DNA of 64,000 nt from a virus. Of the stretch, positions 12,769 through 44,254 are shown one piece after another. Under the pieces are notes generated by a model that searched no databases, was not told where the DNA came from, and saw only the letters and a list, made by a program, of their open reading frames with translations. Location of the stretch: IMG/VR virus record IMGVR_UViG_3300046171_000298, positions 3,209 to 67,208 of that record; one strand, given 5' to 3'. Within the stretch, counting starts at the first letter, position 1. Each line of letters begins with the position of its first letter. The position numbers and the translations under genes were made by a program.

Positions 12769-13270
12769 TATTGAAAGCACTGGGCTACTTCGTAGAGGCT
12801 CAAAAATCCACTGTATTGTTGCTCGTGATTTGAATGATCAATCTGAGCCACTTGTCTTTGACCATAAGCCAGATCGGTCAATTGACATGGGCATCGAGCA
12901 GCTTAAACGCGCTAATGTATTAGTTGGCCACAACATAATTGGTTACGATATTCCACTTATCCGTGAATCATATGAATTTGAATTCGAAGGAGACGTACTT
13001 GATACTCTTGTACTTAGTCGGTTATTTTATCCTCATATCTTGGATCGCGATTACGAACGGCGTCCCGAAGGAATGCCTCAAAAACTATACGGACGTCACA
13101 GTCTCGAAGCATGGGGCTATCGATTAAAGTGTTTTAAGGGTGACTACGGCAAGCAATCAACAGCTTGGGATACATATACTCCTGAGATGCTTGATTATTG
13201 CATTCAAGACACGATGGTTACAGTCAGACTATACGAACTCATGATGCGGAGGATGGAAGACCATGCTTAA
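12746..13270 (+). CDS. PolA 3'-5' exonuclease domain (separate ORF)
   Basis: FDIE (ExoI), GHNIIGYD (ExoII), HSLEAWG, YCIQD (ExoIII). Confidence 0.9.
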   Translation: MKQTLLFDIESTGLLRRGSKIHCIVARDLNDQSEPLVFDHKPDRSIDMGIEQLKRANVLVGHNIIGYDIPLIRESYEFEFEGDVLDTLVLSRLFYPHILDRDYERRPEGMPQKLYGRHSLEAWGYRLKCFKGDYGKQSTAWDTYTPEMLDYCIQDTMVTVRLYELMMRRMEDHA

Positions 13271-14564
13271 TTGTGTACAGCTTGAGATGCGCATGGCTCA
13301 ACTGATGGCTCAACAAGAGTCATCTGGGTTCAGGTTTGACATGCTCGCTGCAGAACGGGTTCGTTCTGATTTGAATCAAAAAGTACTAGACATTCAACAG
13401 AAAATTTCTGAGCGATACAAGTATGTACCTGGCAAGGTGTTTACTCCAAAACGTACTGATAAAAAGACAGGCTATGTAGCTGGAGCGCCGATGACTAAGT
13501 TGGTTGAATTCAACCCAACTAGCCGTCAGCATATTGCATGGGTTCTTCAGAATCATCGGGGTGCTCGATTCACAAAGCTTACAGATACTGGAAAACCTAA
13601 AGTTGATGAAGCGACTCTTTCTGAAATGAGAGACACAGCTCAGCAGCAAAAAAATATACGCTTGTTTGAAGAGTGTGACATGTTCATTACTCTGCTCACA
13701 TTGCAAAAGCATATGGGCCAGTTATCAGAAGGCTCTAACTCTTGGTTCAATACCATTGAAGAGGACAACTGTATTCACCACAGCTGTTCACTTGCAACGC
13801 AAACTGGACGTAACGCGCATCGTGGCCCTAATCTTGGCCAGGTTGTAAGTGCTCCTTGGGCTCGTGAGCTCTTTATACCTCATCCTGGTATGACAATGGT
13901 AGGAGCTGACCTTGAAGGTCTAGAGCTTCGCTGTTTAGGGCATTACCTGCACAGGTTTGACGAAGGTGACTTTGCCAAGGTTGTTATTGAAGGTGATATT
14001 CATCAGCAAAATGCTGACCGGGTAGGCTGCAAACGCCATGAAGTCAAGACAATTTGCTATGCGTTTATCTATGGAGCTGGTGACCTTAAGTTAGGCCACA
14101 GCTTGCATCCTGAGTACTCTGATGCACAGAAAAAAGCGTTGGGTCAAGAGCTTCGCCGTAAGTTCCTTGATGCTATTCCAGGTCTTGAACCACTGATTGA
14201 TGCAGTCAAGCAAAAGGTTCGTTCTAAAGGAATGATCAAAGGATTAGACGGTCGTCCTATCTTCTGTAAGGCAGAACACGCCTCGCTCAACTATCTCCTG
14301 CAGTCAGCCGGAGCGATTTTGAGTAAAAGGTGGTGTATAATTGGTCAGCAATTAATTGATGCTGCAGGTCTTACTTATAATAGAGACTACACACGTTGCG
14401 CTTACGTCCACGATGAACAGCAGTTTTCTGTTATTCCTCAAGAAGCCGAAAGAGTTGCAAGTATTTTAGTAGAAGCTGCTCCACTTGCTGGTACTTACTA
14501 TGACTTTAAAGTACCAATTACAGCAGCATCAGCTATAGGTGAGAACTGGGCCAAAACGCATTAA
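13263..14564 (+). CDS. polA: Family A DNA polymerase, polymerase domain
   Basis: FNPTSRQH, TGR, DLEGLELR (motif A), KTICYAFIYG (motif B), VHDE (motif C). Confidence 0.95.
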   Translation: MLNCVQLEMRMAQLMAQQESSGFRFDMLAAERVRSDLNQKVLDIQQKISERYKYVPGKVFTPKRTDKKTGYVAGAPMTKLVEFNPTSRQHIAWVLQNHRGARFTKLTDTGKPKVDEATLSEMRDTAQQQKNIRLFEECDMFITLLTLQKHMGQLSEGSNSWFNTIEEDNCIHHSCSLATQTGRNAHRGPNLGQVVSAPWARELFIPHPGMTMVGADLEGLELRCLGHYLHRFDEGDFAKVVIEGDIHQQNADRVGCKRHEVKTICYAFIYGAGDLKLGHSLHPEYSDAQKKALGQELRRKFLDAIPGLEPLIDAVKQKVRSKGMIKGLDGRPIFCKAEHASLNYLLQSAGAILSKRWCIIGQQLIDAAGLTYNRDYTRCAYVHDEQQFSVIPQEAERVASILVEAAPLAGTYYDFKVPITAASAIGENWAKTH

Positions 14565-14568
14565 TGCT

Positions 14569-14760
14569 ATGATTGATTCTCCAGACGACAATTTCAATAT
14601 TCAAATTGATCTAAATAAAGATGCCTTAAGACTGCTGCTTAAAGCAGTCGATTATCGAATTGAGAAATGGCCGGGTGGAGATCCTAAAGAACAAACAGAT
14701 CTTCAATTTTTACAAACTAGGTTAAGAGCAGCCTTCCTTGAATATCAATTTAAAGACTAA
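14569..14760 (+). CDS. Small hypothetical protein of picocyanobacterial/cyanophage type
   Basis: WPGGDPKEQ..L..L motif. Confidence 0.6.
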   Translation: MIDSPDDNFNIQIDLNKDALRLLLKAVDYRIEKWPGGDPKEQTDLQFLQTRLRAAFLEYQFKD

Positions 14761-14777
14761 GTGTTCGCCGTGAACTG

Positions 14778-14794
14778 GTAACAATAGTTACAAT
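14778..14794 (+). promoter_or_regulatory. NtcA box overlapping a -10 element
   Basis: GTAAC-AATA-GTTAC (14778-14791) is a palindromic GTA-N8-TAC; TACAAT at 14789-14794 lies just upstream of the riboswitch. Confidence 0.7.
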
Positions 14795-14803
14795 AATAGT
14801 AAA

Positions 14804-14852
14804 CGTTGATCCTCATTGAGGACGCAAGTACCACAGCCAGTGGGAAGCAACG
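14804..14852 (+). ncRNA. Glutamine riboswitch (glnA motif-like three-way junction)
   Basis: CGTTG-A-TCCTC-ATT-GAGGA-CGCAAGTA-CCAC-AGCCA-GTGG-GAAG-CAACG: P1, P2, P3 and AAGUA/GAA E-loop; 5' of a DUF4278-like gene. Confidence 0.85.
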
Positions 14853-14880
14853 GGCAATTAAACCCCTACTGGATAGACCA

Positions 14881-15066
14881 ATGACTGAACTGCAAGCTCG
14901 TGCAATTGTTAATGCACGCAATGACTTTGAGCGTGCTCGTAAAGAGCTCAATCAAATCAAACTGAGCGAAACCCGTTATCGCGGAAATCTGTATACAACA
15001 GACGCTCGTATGCCACAAAATGTACATGGTACATTTACTTATCGTGGTCAAACCTACGAAAAGTGA
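14881..15066 (+). CDS. DUF4278-like small protein
   Basis: Two YRG motifs (TRYRGNLY, FTYRGQTY); ATG at 14881 downstream of riboswitch. Confidence 0.75.
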   Translation: MTELQARAIVNARNDFERARKELNQIKLSETRYRGNLYTTDARMPQNVHGTFTYRGQTYEK

Positions 15067-15113
15067 AGCAAAGTAACAATAGAATAGAAGAAATACTCCT
15101 TTGCTTATGAATA

Positions 15114-15305
15114 ATGTATCTCTACATTCCCAAAGATTTAGACAAGAATAGAACTAAAAAAAGGCCTATTGAGCCTGAAATGATTTTTGCAAGTCTTTGT
15201 TATAGAGGAATACATTATTCAAAATGGGTATGCACTAACTCATTAGCATTAAATTACCAGCACCTCCATGGTGAACCCATGGAAGACTGGACATTAGATT
15301 GGTAA
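15114..15305 (+). CDS. Small hypothetical protein with one DUF4278-like YRG motif
   Basis: LCYRGIHY. Confidence 0.5.
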   Translation: MYLYIPKDLDKNRTKKRPIEPEMIFASLCYRGIHYSKWVCTNSLALNYQHLHGEPMEDWTLDW

Positions 15306-15310
15306 GTTCT

Positions 15311-15337
15311 GACCCACTAACGTGGGTCTATTTTTTT
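15311..15337 (+). terminator. Rho-independent terminator
   Basis: GACCCAC-TAAC-GTGGGTC followed by T-run. Confidence 0.8.
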
Positions 15338-15378
15338 GTCTTCAATCAATTAAATTAGTAATATATGCGTATTTAACA

Positions 15379-15888
15379 ATGGAACACATTAACAAGTTGT
15401 TAATTCATTACTCTGTTTTACTCATTGATTTACTTTATAAAGACAGGCATTTTCAAAGATTTTGGGTACTAGAAACCATTGCCCGAGTTCCTTACTTTTC
15501 TTTTCTAAGTGTTCTGCATTTTAAAGAATCATTAGGATTGCGAGGAAACAATCATCATTTTCTAATGAAAGAACATTTTGCTCAATCAATTAATGAAACA
15601 GAGCATTTGGAAATTATGGAAAAACGTGGCGGTAACGCATATTGGATTGATCGGTTTTTTGCATATCATTTAGTATTACTTTATTACTGGTTAATGGTCA
15701 TCTATTATCTAGTTGCCCCATCATATGCTTATGATCTTAATGTATGTATTGAGCAACATGCTGTTCATACATATCAGACTTATTTAGACAATGTAGATTC
15801 TAAAGATTCACAGATATTTCAAATACTTAGTGATGAACAAAAGCATGTATACGAGCTAATATCTGCTCAATCATTAATTCTTTTATAA
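15379..15888 (+). CDS. ptox: Plastoquinol terminal oxidase
   Basis: RFWVLETIARVPYF, NETEH, EQHA, DEQKH di-iron motifs. Confidence 0.93.
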   Translation: MEHINKLLIHYSVLLIDLLYKDRHFQRFWVLETIARVPYFSFLSVLHFKESLGLRGNNHHFLMKEHFAQSINETEHLEIMEKRGGNAYWIDRFFAYHLVLLYYWLMVIYYLVAPSYAYDLNVCIEQHAVHTYQTYLDNVDSKDSQIFQILSDEQKHVYELISAQSLILL

Positions 15889-15986
15889 GACAGATACTAT
15901 ACTGTCTTTTCACTTTTAACTAAAAATTAGTTTATAGTATTTAAAGTGACATTAGCTCACTAACTATATTATTTACTATAGATTAT

Positions 15987-16367
15987 ATGTCTATCATTTC
16001 AAAAATTGCACTTTTTGGTGCACTGTCTACTGTTGCAGTATCTCCTGCAATCGCTGGTCCATTTGCAAACATCGAAAGCAATACATCTTATTTTGGTGAT
16101 GATCGCTTAAATACAACTACAGATTTGCATCTTGGCTATGAGCATGCTATCAACGATAAAGTAACTGTCTCTATTCAAGCAGGCCCTTCTTTTGTTAATA
16201 TGCCTGATGCTGATTACGAGCATGAAATCTCAGGTAAAGTTGCAATCTCAGCTGATGTAAGCGAAAGCCTCAACATTTATGGTGAAGCATACGCAATCAC
16301 GGTTCAACGTGACATTGAAGCAGACTTTCCAATTGATTTGAAAGTAGGCGCACGATATTCCTTCTGA
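15987..16367 (+). CDS. Small outer-membrane beta-barrel/porin-like protein
   Basis: Signal peptide ending PAIA-GP, amphipathic strands, C-terminal KVGARYSF. Confidence 0.7.
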   Translation: MSIISKIALFGALSTVAVSPAIAGPFANIESNTSYFGDDRLNTTTDLHLGYEHAINDKVTVSIQAGPSFVNMPDADYEHEISGKVAISADVSESLNIYGEAYAITVQRDIEADFPIDLKVGARYSF

Positions 16368-16373
16368 TAAAGT

Positions 16374-16399
16374 CCCGGCTAGCGCCGGGCTTTTTTTTT
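16374..16399 (+). terminator. Rho-independent terminator
   Basis: CCCGGC-TAGC-GCCGGG followed by T9. Confidence 0.85.
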
Positions 16400-16403
16400 G
16401 TTC

Positions 16404-16706
16404 TTAAGACAACAGCCTTATATTCTCATTACGTAGTTCAATATCTTTTTTCAGGCTTTCGGCACTTGCAGTTTCTGCAGCTTGCTTCTGAAGGCCTGCT
16501 TGCTTGTACTGATAATTATTCTGCAAAGGATCACCTTGCATTGATTTAGGAACAACTCCAGACGGGTTGTATGCTGCACGATAAGCTAAATTACCGCGAG
16601 AGCGGTGTGCAATCGCTTTACTTTTAGCATTCATTCGATCTCGATATCCACGATCACTAGATTTCAGATATCTATTATCAACTGGATTTGAGCGTAAACC
16701 AGACAC
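16404..16706 (-). CDS. Hypothetical protein
   Basis: ORF track. Confidence 0.55.
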   Translation of the reverse strand: MSGLRSNPVDNRYLKSSDRGYRDRMNAKSKAIAHRSRGNLAYRAAYNPSGVVPKSMQGDPLQNNYQYKQAGLQKQAAETASAESLKKDIELRNENIRLLS

Positions 16707-16715
16707 AATTTATTT

Positions 16716-16901
16716 TCATTTATCTTTATTATATCCCCACTCAGTTTCGGAGGCATTCCATATCGATATCCATTCTGCTGAGCGATGCAACAGGTCCACA
16801 GGCAATGAATCCATTAGACAATTCACTGCTGCTATATGGTGACTTGAGTTTGGATCGTAGTTTTTAAAGAATCGATTTAGGTCAATCACGGATCCCAACA
16901 A
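16716..16901 (-). CDS. Small protein resembling the N-terminal domain of the endolysin
   Basis: DLNRFFKNYD..SSHHIAAV..L...LP..L.....EWI vs NFFKFYDGSPHQRYAI..L...LP..L.....DWI. Confidence 0.55.
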   Translation of the reverse strand: MLGSVIDLNRFFKNYDPNSSHHIAAVNCLMDSLPVDLLHRSAEWISIWNASETEWGYNKDK

Positions 16902-17112
16902 AGTCTTTAATTGTTTGCAGCTCAGTAGCTACGGGCTGTAGGGTAACAACCATCTTTTGAAGTGTTTGTTTATCAATTACATCTACTAGCTTTTCAACAC
17001 GTTCAACTCTGGCTGTTAAGTCAGTAACTTTTTTCTTTAGACGTTCATCGGTAAAGTGCGTGAACTTCATACCAAAGAGTAAAGCCAAGATTGGCCCCAG
17101 TACATATTCCAT
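16882..17112 (-). CDS. Small membrane-anchored coiled-coil protein
   Basis: N-terminal hydrophobic segment followed by heptads. Confidence 0.55.
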   Translation of the reverse strand: MEYVLGPILALLFGMKFTHFTDERLKKKVTDLTARVERVEKLVDVIDKQTLQKMVVTLQPVATELQTIKDFVGIRD

Positions 17113-17147: not shown

Positions 17148-17477
17148 CTATGCAAAAGTGAGACCATCACCATCTAAATCATCATCTTCCCAACCTATAT
17201 CTTCAATGTCTGTAGACATTTCATCAGCACTATTTAAAATCAATAGTTCTGTAAATGTTTCTTCTGACATTATTTCCGGTGGCCCTACTTGAGCCTCATC
17301 TACTTTAAATAATATACCGTTCTCTCTCAAGAATGTTTGCAAGCCATTCTTTTGCTCCATTCGTGTTTTAAGCAGTTTTAAGGCTGTGAGCTCCAAAGCA
17401 GACCGGCTCATCCTCGTTACTTCGTAACGCGCTCTCCTGAGTGCAAACCTCTGTTCTATCGATAGTGTGTTCATCAT
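17148..17477 (-). CDS. nblA: NblA-like phycobilisome degradation adaptor with acidic C-terminal extension
   Basis: LSIEQRFALRRARYEVTRMSRSALELTALKL matches NblA pattern LSLEQxFxxR....V..MS.......LxxL. Confidence 0.6.
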   Translation of the reverse strand: MMNTLSIEQRFALRRARYEVTRMSRSALELTALKLLKTRMEQKNGLQTFLRENGILFKVDEAQVGPPEIMSEETFTELLILNSADEMSTDIEDIGWEDDDLDGDGLTFA

Positions 17478-17823
17478 TTTCAAAGTAATCGTAATCTAGG
17501 CGTGTGTCATTAACCCATTCCAAAATCAATTCTTTTGCAACTTCGTTGTAAAATGTTTGTGATTCAAACCAAGAAACCCATTCTTGAGAACTCTTGCTTT
17601 GGTTACATTCTACGCAACACGGAACAAGATTGCTTCTTAAATTACTGCCACCTTTCGAGCGAGGTTTGAGGTGGTCAACCGTTACTGCTCTTTGTTTTCG
17701 ACAATACGCACACAAACCTCCAAACGAATATCGGATGAAGTTTCGGAATCTTTTCTTGGCAGATCCCTTGGAAAGGCACTGGAGATTGAACATAAGTTCG
17801 CCCCAACTTTCTGGTGTACGCAT
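17368..17823 (-). CDS. HNH endonuclease
   Basis: CAYC...TVDHLKPRSKGGSNLRSNLVPCCVECNQSK. Confidence 0.9.
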   Translation of the reverse strand: MRTPESWGELMFNLQCLSKGSAKKRFRNFIRYSFGGLCAYCRKQRAVTVDHLKPRSKGGSNLRSNLVPCCVECNQSKSSQEWVSWFESQTFYNEVAKELILEWVNDTRLDYDYFENDEHTIDRTEVCTQESALRSNEDEPVCFGAHSLKTA

Positions 17824-17873
17824 AAAGTTGCTTAACAACTTAACTTAACTATAAGTTGAGTTTGATTCAAAAT

Positions 17874-18577: not shown

Positions 18578-18629
18578 GATAATATTTTGTCTCTACTTTA
18601 ATTTTATCAAATCTATTTAGAATAAAAAT

Positions 18630-18716
18630 GGAGAGGTGGTCGAGTGGTTTATGGCTCCAGTCTTGAAAACTGGCGTGTCTTCACGGGCACCAGGGGTTCG
18701 AATCCCCTCCTCTCCG
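18630..18716 (+). tRNA. tRNA-Ser (anticodon TGA)
   Basis: Acceptor GGAGAGG/CCTCTCC, anticodon arm CCAGT-CTTGAAA-ACTGG, long variable arm, GGTTCGAATCC; CCA not encoded. Confidence 0.95.
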
Positions 18717-18727
18717 TGGATGCGCGA

Positions 18728-19540
18728 CTAACGTCTAATCTTTTTTATTGCTTCAAATTTATCTTCAATGGTCCAAGTGCCATAACGAGCTGTCATACCT
18801 GCAACTTTATGACCCATGAGTTTAGAAATCATAGAATCTTGCAAATTAGCGCTCCTTGCTCTAGTGCTCCAGTTGTGACGAAGGCTGTGAGCTGCTTCGC
18901 CTTGGGGTAGCCCCATAACGTCATTAAATTTTTCAGACCAATTTTTGCCTGGGTAACGAGTGAAGTCAGTTGTTAGCATCCCCACCCACGGATAAAACTC
19001 AGGATGGATGGGCACTTGCCGTGTGGCCAGAGGCTTTACAAGCCTGTTGTCATTATTTTTAATTTGAAAGTAAGGGATTTCACTACGGAAAACAATTTCT
19101 CTATTTAACAAACCAGCGATTTCACCAATTCTAAATCCGTGATACCAGATCGCAAGAAAAATAGGATCTTGATGATAGGGTTTATAAAAATCAAACGGAC
19201 GCACAGGATATTCTTTACCCATGCGCTCCGCTTGCATGTCTCTGTTGACTTTAATTTTTTTACTGGAGTGTAGCCAATAGTTTTGACCATCAACGATGTC
19301 TTCTTCATTTGCCATATTCCAGATACCTGAGAGCAAGCTGAGGCGGCGTCTGAGGGTCTCAGGAGAGCATTTGCCAATTGGCTTGAGCTGTGACTTCCAA
19401 TAGCGTGTAACAAACATTTTGTCTGTCATTGACACGTCAACATCAGCGATAGGCCGAATAGCCTGCCACCAACATTTGTATGTGCTGTCACGAATGTCCT
19501 GCGTTTCGCGGACACATTCCATCAGTTCTTTGTAATTCAT
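18728..19540 (-). CDS. int: Tyrosine recombinase/integrase
   Basis: HGFRIGEI, HSLRH, LMGH, MTARY catalytic residues. Confidence 0.9.
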   Translation of the reverse strand: MNYKELMECVRETQDIRDSTYKCWWQAIRPIADVDVSMTDKMFVTRYWKSQLKPIGKCSPETLRRRLSLLSGIWNMANEEDIVDGQNYWLHSSKKIKVNRDMQAERMGKEYPVRPFDFYKPYHQDPIFLAIWYHGFRIGEIAGLLNREIVFRSEIPYFQIKNNDNRLVKPLATRQVPIHPEFYPWVGMLTTDFTRYPGKNWSEKFNDVMGLPQGEAAHSLRHNWSTRARSANLQDSMISKLMGHKVAGMTARYGTWTIEDKFEAIKKIRR

Positions 19541-19582
19541 GTGATCTTTCTGGGTTATAAGCAACGCCAATCAATGTCTAAC

Positions 19583-43297: not shown

Positions 43298-44254
43298 TTA
43301 AAGGTATTCACTCACCATATCGCTGCGATCTTTAAGAGCTTTTAGTGCTTTGATTTCTAATGTCCGAACACGATCTCTGCTCATGTTTAAAATTTGACCA
43401 ATTGCTGTCATAGACATAGGTTCCCTTACTTCATCTCCAATACCATATCTCATACGAATTACTGATGCTTGCATTTCAGGAAGTTCATTGATTAAATTTT
43501 GAATGTCTTCTTTAATAAACGCAGACGTCAGTAACTTGTCTGGTAATGAGTTCTCATCTTCAAGTAAATCAATGAGGCAGGTATCTCGATTCTCTCCTAC
43601 ACGAATCTCCAGAGACGTTGGAAGTCTCGCTTTACACATCAGATCTTTGACCTCATCAATGCTTAAGTCAAGCTCTCGTGAAAGCTGCTCAAGTGATGGC
43701 ATATCGCCATTGTATTGGGCTAAGTCACGCTGGGCTTTCTTAAGCTTGTTGAGATTCTCAGTGACGTGTATTGGCAATCGGATAGCTCTACTTTTCTCAG
43801 CAATAGCTCGTGTAATGCCCTGTCTGATCCACCAGTAAGCATATGTACTAAATTTATAACCACGACCTGGGTCAAATTTTTCTACACCACGTACTAGTCC
43901 AATAGTGCCTTCTTGAATAATATCAAGTAGCTCCATATTCCTTTTGGTGTATTTTTTGGCAACACTAACAACTAGACGCAGGTTGGCTGTAACCATCTTG
44001 TTTTTTGCTTTCTGTCCAGCACGAATTTCTCTAATCAGAGCCCTTCTGTCGTACTCAAAATGTGCAGCCAATTCTGTATCATCAATCTTACGACTGTGCT
44101 GCTCTGCTAGTTCTTTACGCTTTTCTTCTATTTCCATCAAGCGCTGAACTTGACGGCCAAGCATAATTTCTTCGTCATGCTCAAGCAATGGGATTCTACC
44201 AATGTCCCTCAAATAAGAACGAACATTGTCCCCACTAATATTAGGTTTTGGCAT
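43298..44254 (-). CDS. rpoD: RpoD/SigA-family RNA polymerase sigma factor (cyanobacterial group 2-like)
   Basis: YLRDIGRIPLL, ANLRLVVSVAKKY, GYKFSTYAYWWIRQGITRAIA, SRDRVRTLE. Confidence 0.95.
   Translation of the reverse strand: MPKPNISGDNVRSYLRDIGRIPLLEHDEEIMLGRQVQRLMEIEEKRKELAEQHSRKIDDTELAAHFEYDRRALIREIRAGQKAKNKMVTANLRLVVSVAKKYTKRNMELLDIIQEGTIGLVRGVEKFDPGRGYKFSTYAYWWIRQGITRAIAEKSRAIRLPIHVTENLNKLKKAQRDLAQYNGDMPSLEQLSRELDLSIDEVKDLMCKARLPTSLEIRVGENRDTCLIDLLEDENSLPDKLLTSAFIKEDIQNLINELPEMQASVIRMRYGIGDEVREPMSMTAIGQILNMSRDRVRTLEIKALKALKDRSDMVSEYL

Follow-up and report, generated by a model that had tools for sequence, protein, structure and literature searches.

Can a phage of marine picocyanobacteria place genes of its own under the control of host nitrogen status? 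The question is raised by a short stretch of IMG/VR virus record IMGVR_UViG_3300046171_000298, in which an earlier reading of the sequence (here, the original prediction) had recognized an NtcA box, a glutamine riboswitch and a DUF4278-like gene, and had interpreted them as a "double lock" that allows a small protein to be made only in nitrogen-replete hosts. We analyzed a window of 64,000 nucleotides, bases 3209 to 67208 of this linear record of 67,208 bases, the completeness of which is estimated at 85%. Positions below are those of the window, L numbers designate related phage loci, and statements about published work refer to the parts of the cited papers that were covered. Our analysis suggests that the locus is probably a nitrogen-status-gated cassette of two small-protein genes, with a control logic as in the host IF17-like genes gifB and PMM1846. 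It exemplifies a type of cassette that occurs very commonly among cyanophages and has gone largely undescribed.

A glutamine aptamer and two small genes form a conserved cassette

The RNA upstream of the first gene matched the type I glutamine riboswitch aptamer (the glnA RNA motif, RF01739) at 42.0 bits (gathering score, 35), and the match spans model positions 1 to 53 of 53. The match was far above chance, with E values of 9e-6 for the 64-kb window and 2.3e-9 for the record, and it was the sole copy in the 67-kb record. The complete three-stem glnA-type RNA of the original prediction was confirmed stem by stem (Table 1); the aptamer also has the ACGCAAGTA junction and the GAAG strand. In 11 phage loci with single aptamers, 6 of the 14 predicted pairs showed compensatory changes, and the conserved ACGCAAGUA junction columns were invariant. 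Covariance model and covariation place this RNA in the glutamine-I aptamer class. Of the two Rfam models that the original prediction had named for a search, only glnA passed; the Downstream-peptide model (Glutamine-II, RF01704) scored 20.7 bits against a cutoff of 33 at the same place, and RF01739 was preferred.

The aptamer is followed by ORF1, the open reading frame (ORF) of 61 amino acids (aa) with two YRG motifs (RYRGN and TYRGQ) that had been predicted, and by ORF2, a gene missed in that reading, which encodes a 63-aa protein with one YRG motif (LCYRGIHYSKWV). A terminator-like hairpin follows, and box, aptamer, both ORFs and terminator occupy approximately 580 nt in all. Four IMG/VR contigs (L002 to L005) encode ORF1 relatives at 90 to 98% identity, and all carry the aptamer above threshold (38.4 to 40.4 bits). 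ORF2 and the same terminator hairpin were present in the three that reach far enough (L002, L003 and L005), with ORF2 conserved as a protein despite many nucleotide changes. The upstream neighbor is the polymerase gene in the window and in L002 and encodes other proteins in L003 and L005; downstream, the window and its relatives have a plastoquinol terminal oxidase (PTOX) gene, a kinase-like ORF or an outer-membrane protein gene. These differing neighbors suggest that the cassette moves as one block within a region of variable accessory genes. Homologous cassettes are present in T4-like cyanomyoviruses, where they adjoin nrdB and genes for carbamoyltransferase, transaldolase, thymidylate synthase and NAD synthetase, and in cyanophage Syn30 an ORF2-like ORF (LTYRGVHYAKWV) follows the ORF1 homologue. 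Public gene calls (P0001 and P0004) start ORF1 at a TTG inside the aptamer (14806), giving 86 to 87 aa; this start is probably wrong, since the frame is merely open through the 5' untranslated region (UTR).

A wider sample was obtained by scanning IMG/VR for the aptamer core pattern, which was found in at least 120 stretches. Together with the earlier loci these gave 119 to 120 distinct sites among the matches listed, which are related sequences and not independent events; the site counts below refer to these listed sites. Among the listed phage sites, the link between aptamer and two-YRG gene is almost absolute: a two-YRG ORF followed the aptamer in 103 of the 106 sites with at least 600 nt downstream; the corresponding counts were 0 of 106 for the opposite strand and 1 of 112 for the upstream side.

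Most phage cassettes carry a nested aptamer, with a second CGTTCATCC..GGACGCAA unit within P2 of the outer aptamer, as in L012 to L016 (S-MbCM6, Syn30, Syn1, S-CAM22 and ACG-2014d), L022, L032 and L056. At 68 of 108 sites an ORF of approximately 53 aa (M[LF]E.L.Y...VEL[IV]E...C.W[DG]A[NH]D*) lies inside the aptamer. It begins right after the inner CGTTCATC unit in 63 of those 68, and the conserved aptamer core (UGGGACGCAAACGACUGA) supplies its last codons and its stop, so translation of this inner ORF would traverse the 3' half of the aptamer. Nested aptamers lacking the embedded ORF accounted for 18 of 108 sites and single aptamers like that of the window for 18 of 108. In L007 (1-330) the nested aptamer has its embedded ORF intact, and comparison with L006 showed a near-identical contig that begins within this ORF; the two members of the pair do not differ in the 54-aa two-YRG gene downstream.

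A predicted expression platform would expose the ribosome-binding site

The predicted expression platform is a helix between CCAGUGGG (14837-44), a segment containing the P2 3' strand, and CCUACUGG (14865-72). The latter stops within the GGA/GGAG that precedes the AUG; the Shine-Dalgarno-like GGA triplet is 14871-73. In the minimum-free-energy folds of the window and L002 to L005, this helix was formed and the aptamer was not. Folding predicted a mean unpaired probability for 14863 to 14873 of 0.20 in the free ensemble versus 0.63 with the aptamer enforced, at energies of -19.5 and -16.6 kcal/mol, respectively, so that enforcing the aptamer cost 2.9 kcal/mol. These predictions fit a glutamine ON switch, the window's own helix being a thermodynamic prediction. 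The bases of the small GGG/CCC hairpin in the original prediction are present and are better read as the inner end of the helix 14837-14844/14865-14872.

Related loci cover the ribosome-binding site by other pairings. The 3' part of the aptamer pairs with the Shine-Dalgarno region as CUAAAG/CUUUAG in L010 and as CUGAAG/CUUCAG in L011, a compensatory change, and in eight sister loci (L030, L040, L053, L054, L060, L095, L100 and L117) the GGAG lies in a hairpin abutting P1. The predicted platform agrees with the ON behavior published for glutamine riboswitches (PMC6212724, PMC6698751) and with the proposal, made for glutamine-II, of a competition between ligand binding and a fold that hides the ribosome-binding site (PMC6698751).

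An NtcA-type box overlaps the predicted -10 element

The NtcA motif is GTA-N8-TAC, and repression from sites at or near -10 has been described (PMC6212724). The sequence GTAACAATAGTTAC in the window is a perfect match and a candidate repressor operator, and, as originally noted for this palindrome, it overlaps the -10 hexamer TACAAT. The hexamer is invariant in the five closest loci and lies 9 nt before the first A of the aptamer. From this gap and the family-wide -10 spacing, we predict a transcription start at approximately 14800 to 14802 and a box centered at approximately -16 to -17, over the predicted -10 rather than at -41.5. A sigma-70 promoter scan, which needs a -35 element, gave no call at TACAAT.

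The -35 region is covered by a second palindrome, GTTC-N5-GAAC (GTTCGCCGTGAAC), and GTT[CT]-N5/6-[GA]AAC is kept beside the NtcA-type box in 10 related phage promoters. The copy at 14763-14775 is the only intergenic one in the window and total matches were not above chance, and a phage-wide promoter element was rejected. To our knowledge, no regulator fits this palindrome. A second NtcA box before ORF2 was also dismissed: GTAACAATAG occurs again at 15073-15082, but there is no GTA-N8-TAC, and the GTA is lost in L003 to L005.

We compared a promoter set chosen by the neighboring GTTC..AAC element and not by the box itself, comprising 10 promoters (the window, L002 to L005, L054, L060, L095, L100 and L117). 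A perfect GTA-N8-TAC stood at the same place in 9 of the 10, and L095 has GTA-N7-TAC. The N8 vary (ACAATAGT, ACAACAGT, ACAATAGC, ACAACAGC, TGATTTGC, TAAAGGAC, TAAATAGC and ACAACGGC), the inner palindrome arms of the window decay, and the GTA and TAC triplets alone are kept, as one would expect of an NtcA site. The -10 retains a C that departs from the sigma-70 consensus (TACAAT, TACATT or TACACT). The promoter of the five closest loci has the form GTTCNCCNTRAAC-NN(N)-GTAACAAYAGYTACAAT.

In the wider sample, perfect boxes occupied two positions relative to the first A of the aptamer. Near boxes (start at -28 to -17) were found in 20 of 119 sites and far boxes (start at -62 to -50) in 63 of 119, compared with 0, 0, 1 and 1 of 119 in four control windows; 86 of the 104 boxes within 400 nt on either side fall at one of these positions. 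By class, 58 sites had a far box only, 13 a near box only, 6 both and 42 neither. The far boxes have the extended form TGTA-N8-TACA, a T preceding the box in 51 of 63 and an A following it in 54 of 63, and comprise 49 distinct N8. A good TTGACT -35 element lies 8 nt downstream of them (e.g., L010, L011, L014 and L041). This far-box majority suggests that the general phage logic may be NtcA activation and not repression, so that most phage cassettes may be NtcA-activated. The far boxes are centered at approximately -50/-51, a placement that differs from the classical -41.5 of activators and from that of repressors as well.

Nine near boxes at -18 are GGTATGCTAACATACC and close variants; they are ambiguous, because many such promoters set the -10 within inverted repeats of changing sequence. 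Among the cyanomyoviruses, Syn30 and S-CAM22 have a perfect box over the -10, and S-MbCM6, Syn1 and ACG-2014d have none there. A TANNNT hexamer ends 7 to 9 nt before the first A of the aptamer in 95 of 120 sites, most commonly as TATAAT (54 sites); any TANNNT hexamer was found at 111 of 120 sites at the real place versus 50 of 120 in a control shifted by 45 nt. In L010, L011, L014, L037, L076 and others, the -10 is centered in a 4- to 7-bp inverted repeat, such as GAGTC-TATAAT-GACTC or TGTGTTA-GTAT-TAACACA, the sequence of which changes yet stays complementary.

Evidence at the RNA level came from Logan contigs of RNA libraries (4 of 11 listed runs, from 2 studies), which show neither starts, ends nor strand and in which DNA is possibly present. 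They cover 14595-14851, 14819-15171, 14834-15067, 14857-15071 and 15074-15312. Since the runs had been found with 14600-15400, the contig-free flanks 14300-14594 and 15334-15700 carry no weight. One further contig from an RNA library shares only 14762-14794 with the window, between different flanks, which indicates that this 33-nt promoter/operator piece occurs elsewhere too.

ORF1 belongs to an apparently mainly viral family related to DUF4278

ORF1 matched phrog_545 (E = 2.9e-9) and ORF2 matched phrog_6192 (E = 1e-9). The original label of a DUF4278-like gene is supported through the homologues of ORF1, which match the Pfam model; ORF1 itself stays below its cutoff. All 10 members of a profile alignment of ORF1 relatives (A1) matched DUF4278 at an E value of 1 or less (best, 0.0011), as did 40 of the 46 full-length members of a wider alignment (A2) at 0.1 or less (best, 3e-6). 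By these profile comparisons, the ORF1 family is related to DUF4278 at the family level.

A search with the profile of 10 relatives returned 111 cluster representatives at an E value of 1e-3 or less among 1.84 billion, and a protein homologue search with ORF1 returned 5 close clusters only. By tblastn, ORF1 had weak matches (E value of 1 or less) in 357 phage records, 67 of which cover at least 80% of the query, and 356 of the 357 are named Synechococcus, Prochlorococcus or Cyanophage. The 10 family clusters examined lie on metagenome contigs of at most 198 kb, and with the phage matches this makes the family look mainly viral. In the ESM Atlas, ORF1 was closest to viral clusters (0.87 to 0.89) and to one cyanobacterial DUF4278 cluster (0.86), values that are all below 0.9 and serve as leads only; ORF2 had no usable match there. 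Pfam and NCBIfam scans found no family in ORF1 or ORF2 besides the subthreshold DUF4278 in ORF1, and NCBIfam had no match for the seven proteins scanned. The AlphaFold2 model of ORF1 (pLDDT, 83.7) has a helix (residues 3 to 29) and two beta-hairpins centered on the YRG motifs. In a published table on cyanopodovirus infection, the host DUF4278 gene SYNWH7803_RS10040 of Synechococcus WH7803 has a starred value of 2.63 at the first of five time points after infection (PMC7885011).

Proposed regulation and alternative explanations

From these elements we infer NtcA binding with a repressive effect, the point of transcription start, an ON response and a target, as follows. Transcription would start at the predicted position from a -35-poor promoter whose -10 is overlapped by the GTA-N8-TAC box. 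In nitrogen-poor cells, host NtcA with 2-oxoglutarate would sit on the box and block RNA polymerase. The transcript would open directly with the type I aptamer. Without glutamine, 14837-44 would pair with 14865-72 and cover the ribosome-binding region; with glutamine, the aptamer would retain 14837-44, the site would open, and ORF1, and probably ORF2, would be translated. The products would be small basic proteins with YRG beta-hairpins that most likely bind a host nitrogen-metabolism protein. Glutamine synthetase (GS) is the leading candidate, an unproven one named by analogy, and we consider it doubtful as the actual target of ORF1 and ORF2.

Several observations weigh against this reading. 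The motif GTA-N8-TAC is not enriched in the window (17 matches versus 10.9 expected, a number reached in 6 of 100 shuffles); the box alone is thus not significant, and what gives it meaning is its placement and the comparison with related loci. The five closest loci are approximately 87% identical over the promoter, so their agreement partly reflects shared descent. Most related cassettes have their box ahead of a complete TTGACT/TATAAT promoter and not on the -10. The helix 14837-44/14865-72 has no covariation support within its own clade, where both strands are identical in the five close loci. One contig from an RNA library (X3, 14595-14851) spans the proposed promoter, which may be read-through from upstream genes or DNA carry-over, and the terminator scan predicted no terminator between the polymerase gene and the box. 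On the protein side, ORF1 scored 19.2 bits against the Pfam DUF4278 (PF14105) cutoff of 25.3 (E = 0.0016, residues 32 to 60), its model had no fold match in the PDB (best E value, 5.5), and a PDB profile search gave chance-level matches only (E values of 0.087 or more). A search for cellular relatives with A1, which needs near-exact peptide words, confirmed 0 of 15 candidate stretches in species-representative genomes. Furthermore, the DUF4278 part of IF17 is reported to be dispensable for IF17 function and mainly to stabilize the protein (PMC6316151). Of the originally proposed double lock, both elements are present in the sequence and the box is conserved; the bare motif did not reach significance in the window.

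It is unlikely, in our estimate, that the aptamer gates translation by itself and that the box is a cassette-specific promoter part or the site of another dimeric factor, which could be the phage's own or could act with the GTTC-N5-GAAC palindrome or a phage sigma factor. Such an arrangement would be compatible with the missing enrichment of GTA-N8-TAC, with the conserved palindrome directly beside the box, with the full sigma-70 family factor that the phage encodes (43298-44254), and with the other promoters whose -10 lies within varying inverted repeats, a class to which the -18 boxes (GGTATGCTAACATACC) may belong. However, the window clade keeps GTA and TAC alone while the inner arms decay, a pattern that suits NtcA but neither a hairpin nor a longer operator. 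The extended TGTA..TACA form of the far boxes and the NtcA sites reported in all 16 cyanomyovirus genomes studied (PMC3037559) also argue against it. A somewhat more probable alternative, though still on the unlikely side, leaves the regulation as proposed and directs ORF1 and ORF2 to a target other than GS, such as PII/PipX signaling, glutamine-drawing nucleotide synthesis or nucleic acid. The claim that the protein tunes GS came out weak, given the dispensable DUF4278 part of IF17 and scans that returned nothing beyond subthreshold DUF4278. Control of GS by inactivating factors had, moreover, been ruled out earlier for marine picocyanobacteria (PMC6316151), and the metabolic genes beside the cyanomyovirus cassettes would suit another target. 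Against this stand the facts that IF17 is the only experimentally characterized relative of the domain and that PMM1846-type host proteins have been proposed as GS regulators in the literature covered.

The original prediction had also raised the possibility that host nitrogen status bears on the choice between lysis and lysogeny by way of the cassette and an integrase 3.7 kb away. The integrase was confirmed, 3.66 kb downstream, and with the tRNA-Ser gene it lies within 3.6 to 3.7 kb of the cassette. However, integrase and cassette lie on opposite strands, the cassette, which has a -10 of its own, is closed by the terminator at 15311-15338, and five genes lie between, including those for PTOX, the outer-membrane protein, NblA and the HNH endonuclease. 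In addition, the neighbors of the cassette differ in L002, L003 and L005, and similar cassettes occur in T4-like cyanophages of the lytic type. This coupling was therefore abandoned as very improbable, and we retain the nitrogen-gated two-gene cassette as the favored explanation.

Phage record and neighboring genes

The source is a tailed phage of marine picocyanobacteria. Its phage origin, claimed in the original prediction, is borne out by genes for the large terminase subunit, a tail fiber, the integrase, PTOX and a cyanophage outer-membrane protein in an IMG/VR virus record, and further virion proteins are also encoded. A blastn search with 13000-17000 matched 84 phage records, all named as Synechococcus or Prochlorococcus phages, and among the matches listed every one falls on the PTOX gene. 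The NblA-like gene shares an accessory island with the cassette, the PTOX gene and the outer-membrane protein gene. The tRNA-Ser(tga) gene and the 3' end of the integrase gene are separated by 10 nt, in a probable attachment-site region between replication and structural genes.

Table 1. Features of the cassette and of the surrounding phage genome (window positions)
Feature	Position	Strand	Remarks
Family-A DNA polymerase	13263-14564		
GTTC-N5-GAAC palindrome	14763-14775	+	GTTCGCCGTGAAC; covers -35 region
NtcA-type box GTA-N8-TAC	14778-14791	+	GTAACAATAGTTAC; candidate repressor operator
-10 hexamer TACAAT	14789-14794	+	Overlaps box
Type I glutamine riboswitch aptamer (glnA RNA motif)	14802-14856	+	Rfam RF01739
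Aptamer P1	14804-08/14848-52	+	CGTTG/CAACG
Aptamer P1a	14811-14/14818-21	+	CCTC/GAGG
Aptamer P2	14831-34/14841-44	+	CCAC/GTGG
Predicted expression platform	14837-14872	+	CCAGUGGG (14837-44) pairs with CCUACUGG (14865-72)
ORF1, 61 aa, two-YRG small protein	14881-15066	+	DUF4278-like; phrog_545
ORF2, 63 aa, one-YRG small protein	15114-15305	+	LCYRGIHYSKWV; phrog_6192
Terminator-like hairpin and T run	15311-15338	+	GACCCAC-TAAC-GTGGGTC (15311-15328), then T run; terminator scan
Plastoquinol terminal oxidase (PTOX, AOX family)	15322-15888		
"Cyanophage outer membrane protein"	15987-16367		
NblA-like phycobilisome degradation gene	17148-17483	-	PF04485, 28.8 bits vs 25
HNH endonuclease ORF	17368-17838		Overlaps NblA-like gene
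tRNA-Ser(tga)	18629-18717		
Tyrosine integrase	18728-19570	-	PF00589 Phage_integrase, 30.9 bits vs cutoff of 27.1
Sigma-70 family factor, regions 1.2, 2, 3 and 4	43298-44254	-	phrog_351, E = 1.7e-78; Pfam Sigma70_r2, r3, r4

Significance and relation to known systems

The aptamer core in at least 120 IMG/VR stretches is almost always accompanied by one family of tiny proteins and usually by an NtcA-type box at a fixed position. If the proposed logic is true, host nitrogen status, read through glutamine and 2-oxoglutarate, would be a routine input to cyanophage gene expression, and the phrog_545 ("gp198"-like) phage protein family is pointed to as its output. We tentatively suggest, while holding it rather unlikely in its full extent, that cyanophages of several morphotypes share a two-input carbon/nitrogen sensor that gates two-YRG miniproteins of a phage-specific family, which would reprogram the nitrogen assimilation of the infected host (GS or its regulators), with 2-oxoglutarate sensed via NtcA boxes at two alternative fixed positions in the promoter and glutamine via the type I aptamer. 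The window would then represent a minimal version with a repressor box and a single aptamer, most relatives having the nested double aptamer and the 53-aa ORF, the translation of which inside the aptamer would couple ribosome traffic to ligand sensing. The version in the window is short and simple, which makes it a convenient construct for testing the whole logic, and it could help to settle the role of DUF4278/IF17-like proteins in marine picocyanobacteria, a point left open in PMC6316151.

The components have been published separately, as cyanophage glutamine aptamers, cyanomyovirus NtcA sites and the cyanobacterial three-part design. In the literature searched (main texts), we found no paper on a phage-borne combination of NtcA box, glutamine riboswitch and small gene, nor a description of the near-universal tie between phage aptamer and two-YRG gene or of the two fixed box positions. 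Two glutamine aptamers were described in two cyanophage genomes in a study that considers riboswitches rare in phages (PMC5473149), and others in T4-like cyanophages (PMC9964418, PMC9602691) and in Melnitz, Mosig and Prochlorococcus phage AG-345-P14 (PMC9004378). These share with the window a phage-borne glnA-type aptamer; the downstream two-YRG gene, the NtcA box and the expression platform are not named in the parts of those papers covered, and the Melnitz aptamer is tied to a tmRNA gene, unlike that of the window. In the T4-like cyanomyoviruses (Sullivan et al. 2010, PMC3037559), intergenic GTA-N8-TAC sites were likewise read as use of the host nitrogen regulator. They were read as driving phage genes under nitrogen stress, whereas the box in the window lies over the predicted -10, a position of the repressor type, and is combined with a riboswitch; the word "riboswitch" is absent from that paper. 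With a contig of approximately 67 kb and an integrase, the present phage looks unlike a T4-like myovirus.

The closest parallels are cellular. The original prediction had pointed to cyanobacterial gifB and to the DUF4278 genes behind glutamine riboswitches in marine picocyanobacteria. The three-part design, in which an NtcA site placed at the -10 or the start is joined by an ON glutamine riboswitch and a DUF4278 protein, is published for Synechocystis gifB and Prochlorococcus PMM1846 (PMC6212724, PMC6316151). The gifB gene (IF17) of Synechocystis sp. PCC 6803 shares with the phage cassette, as predicted here, a GTA-N8-TAC over the core promoter, an RF01739-type aptamer at the 5' end of the mRNA and a small protein with a DUF4278-type YRG region, and its activation by glutamine has been published. 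It differs in that its NtcA site is reported to be centered at -7.5 and not at approximately -16 to -17, and in being cellular, whereas the phage cassette has a second YRG gene and an ORF1 that is subthreshold for Pfam DUF4278. At 61 aa, ORF1 showed nothing beyond its DUF4278-like part in the scans, and an IF7-like GS-inactivating C-terminal part is not evident. PMM1846/Yfr6 of Prochlorococcus MED4 (IF17-like, 7 kDa) is described as a short DUF4278-only protein. Its 5' UTR holds a glutamine aptamer, its core promoter has an NtcA motif located at the start site, and it shares the marine picocyanobacterial setting; it is cellular, and its aptamer is of type 2 (Downstream-peptide), whereas that of the phage is of type I.

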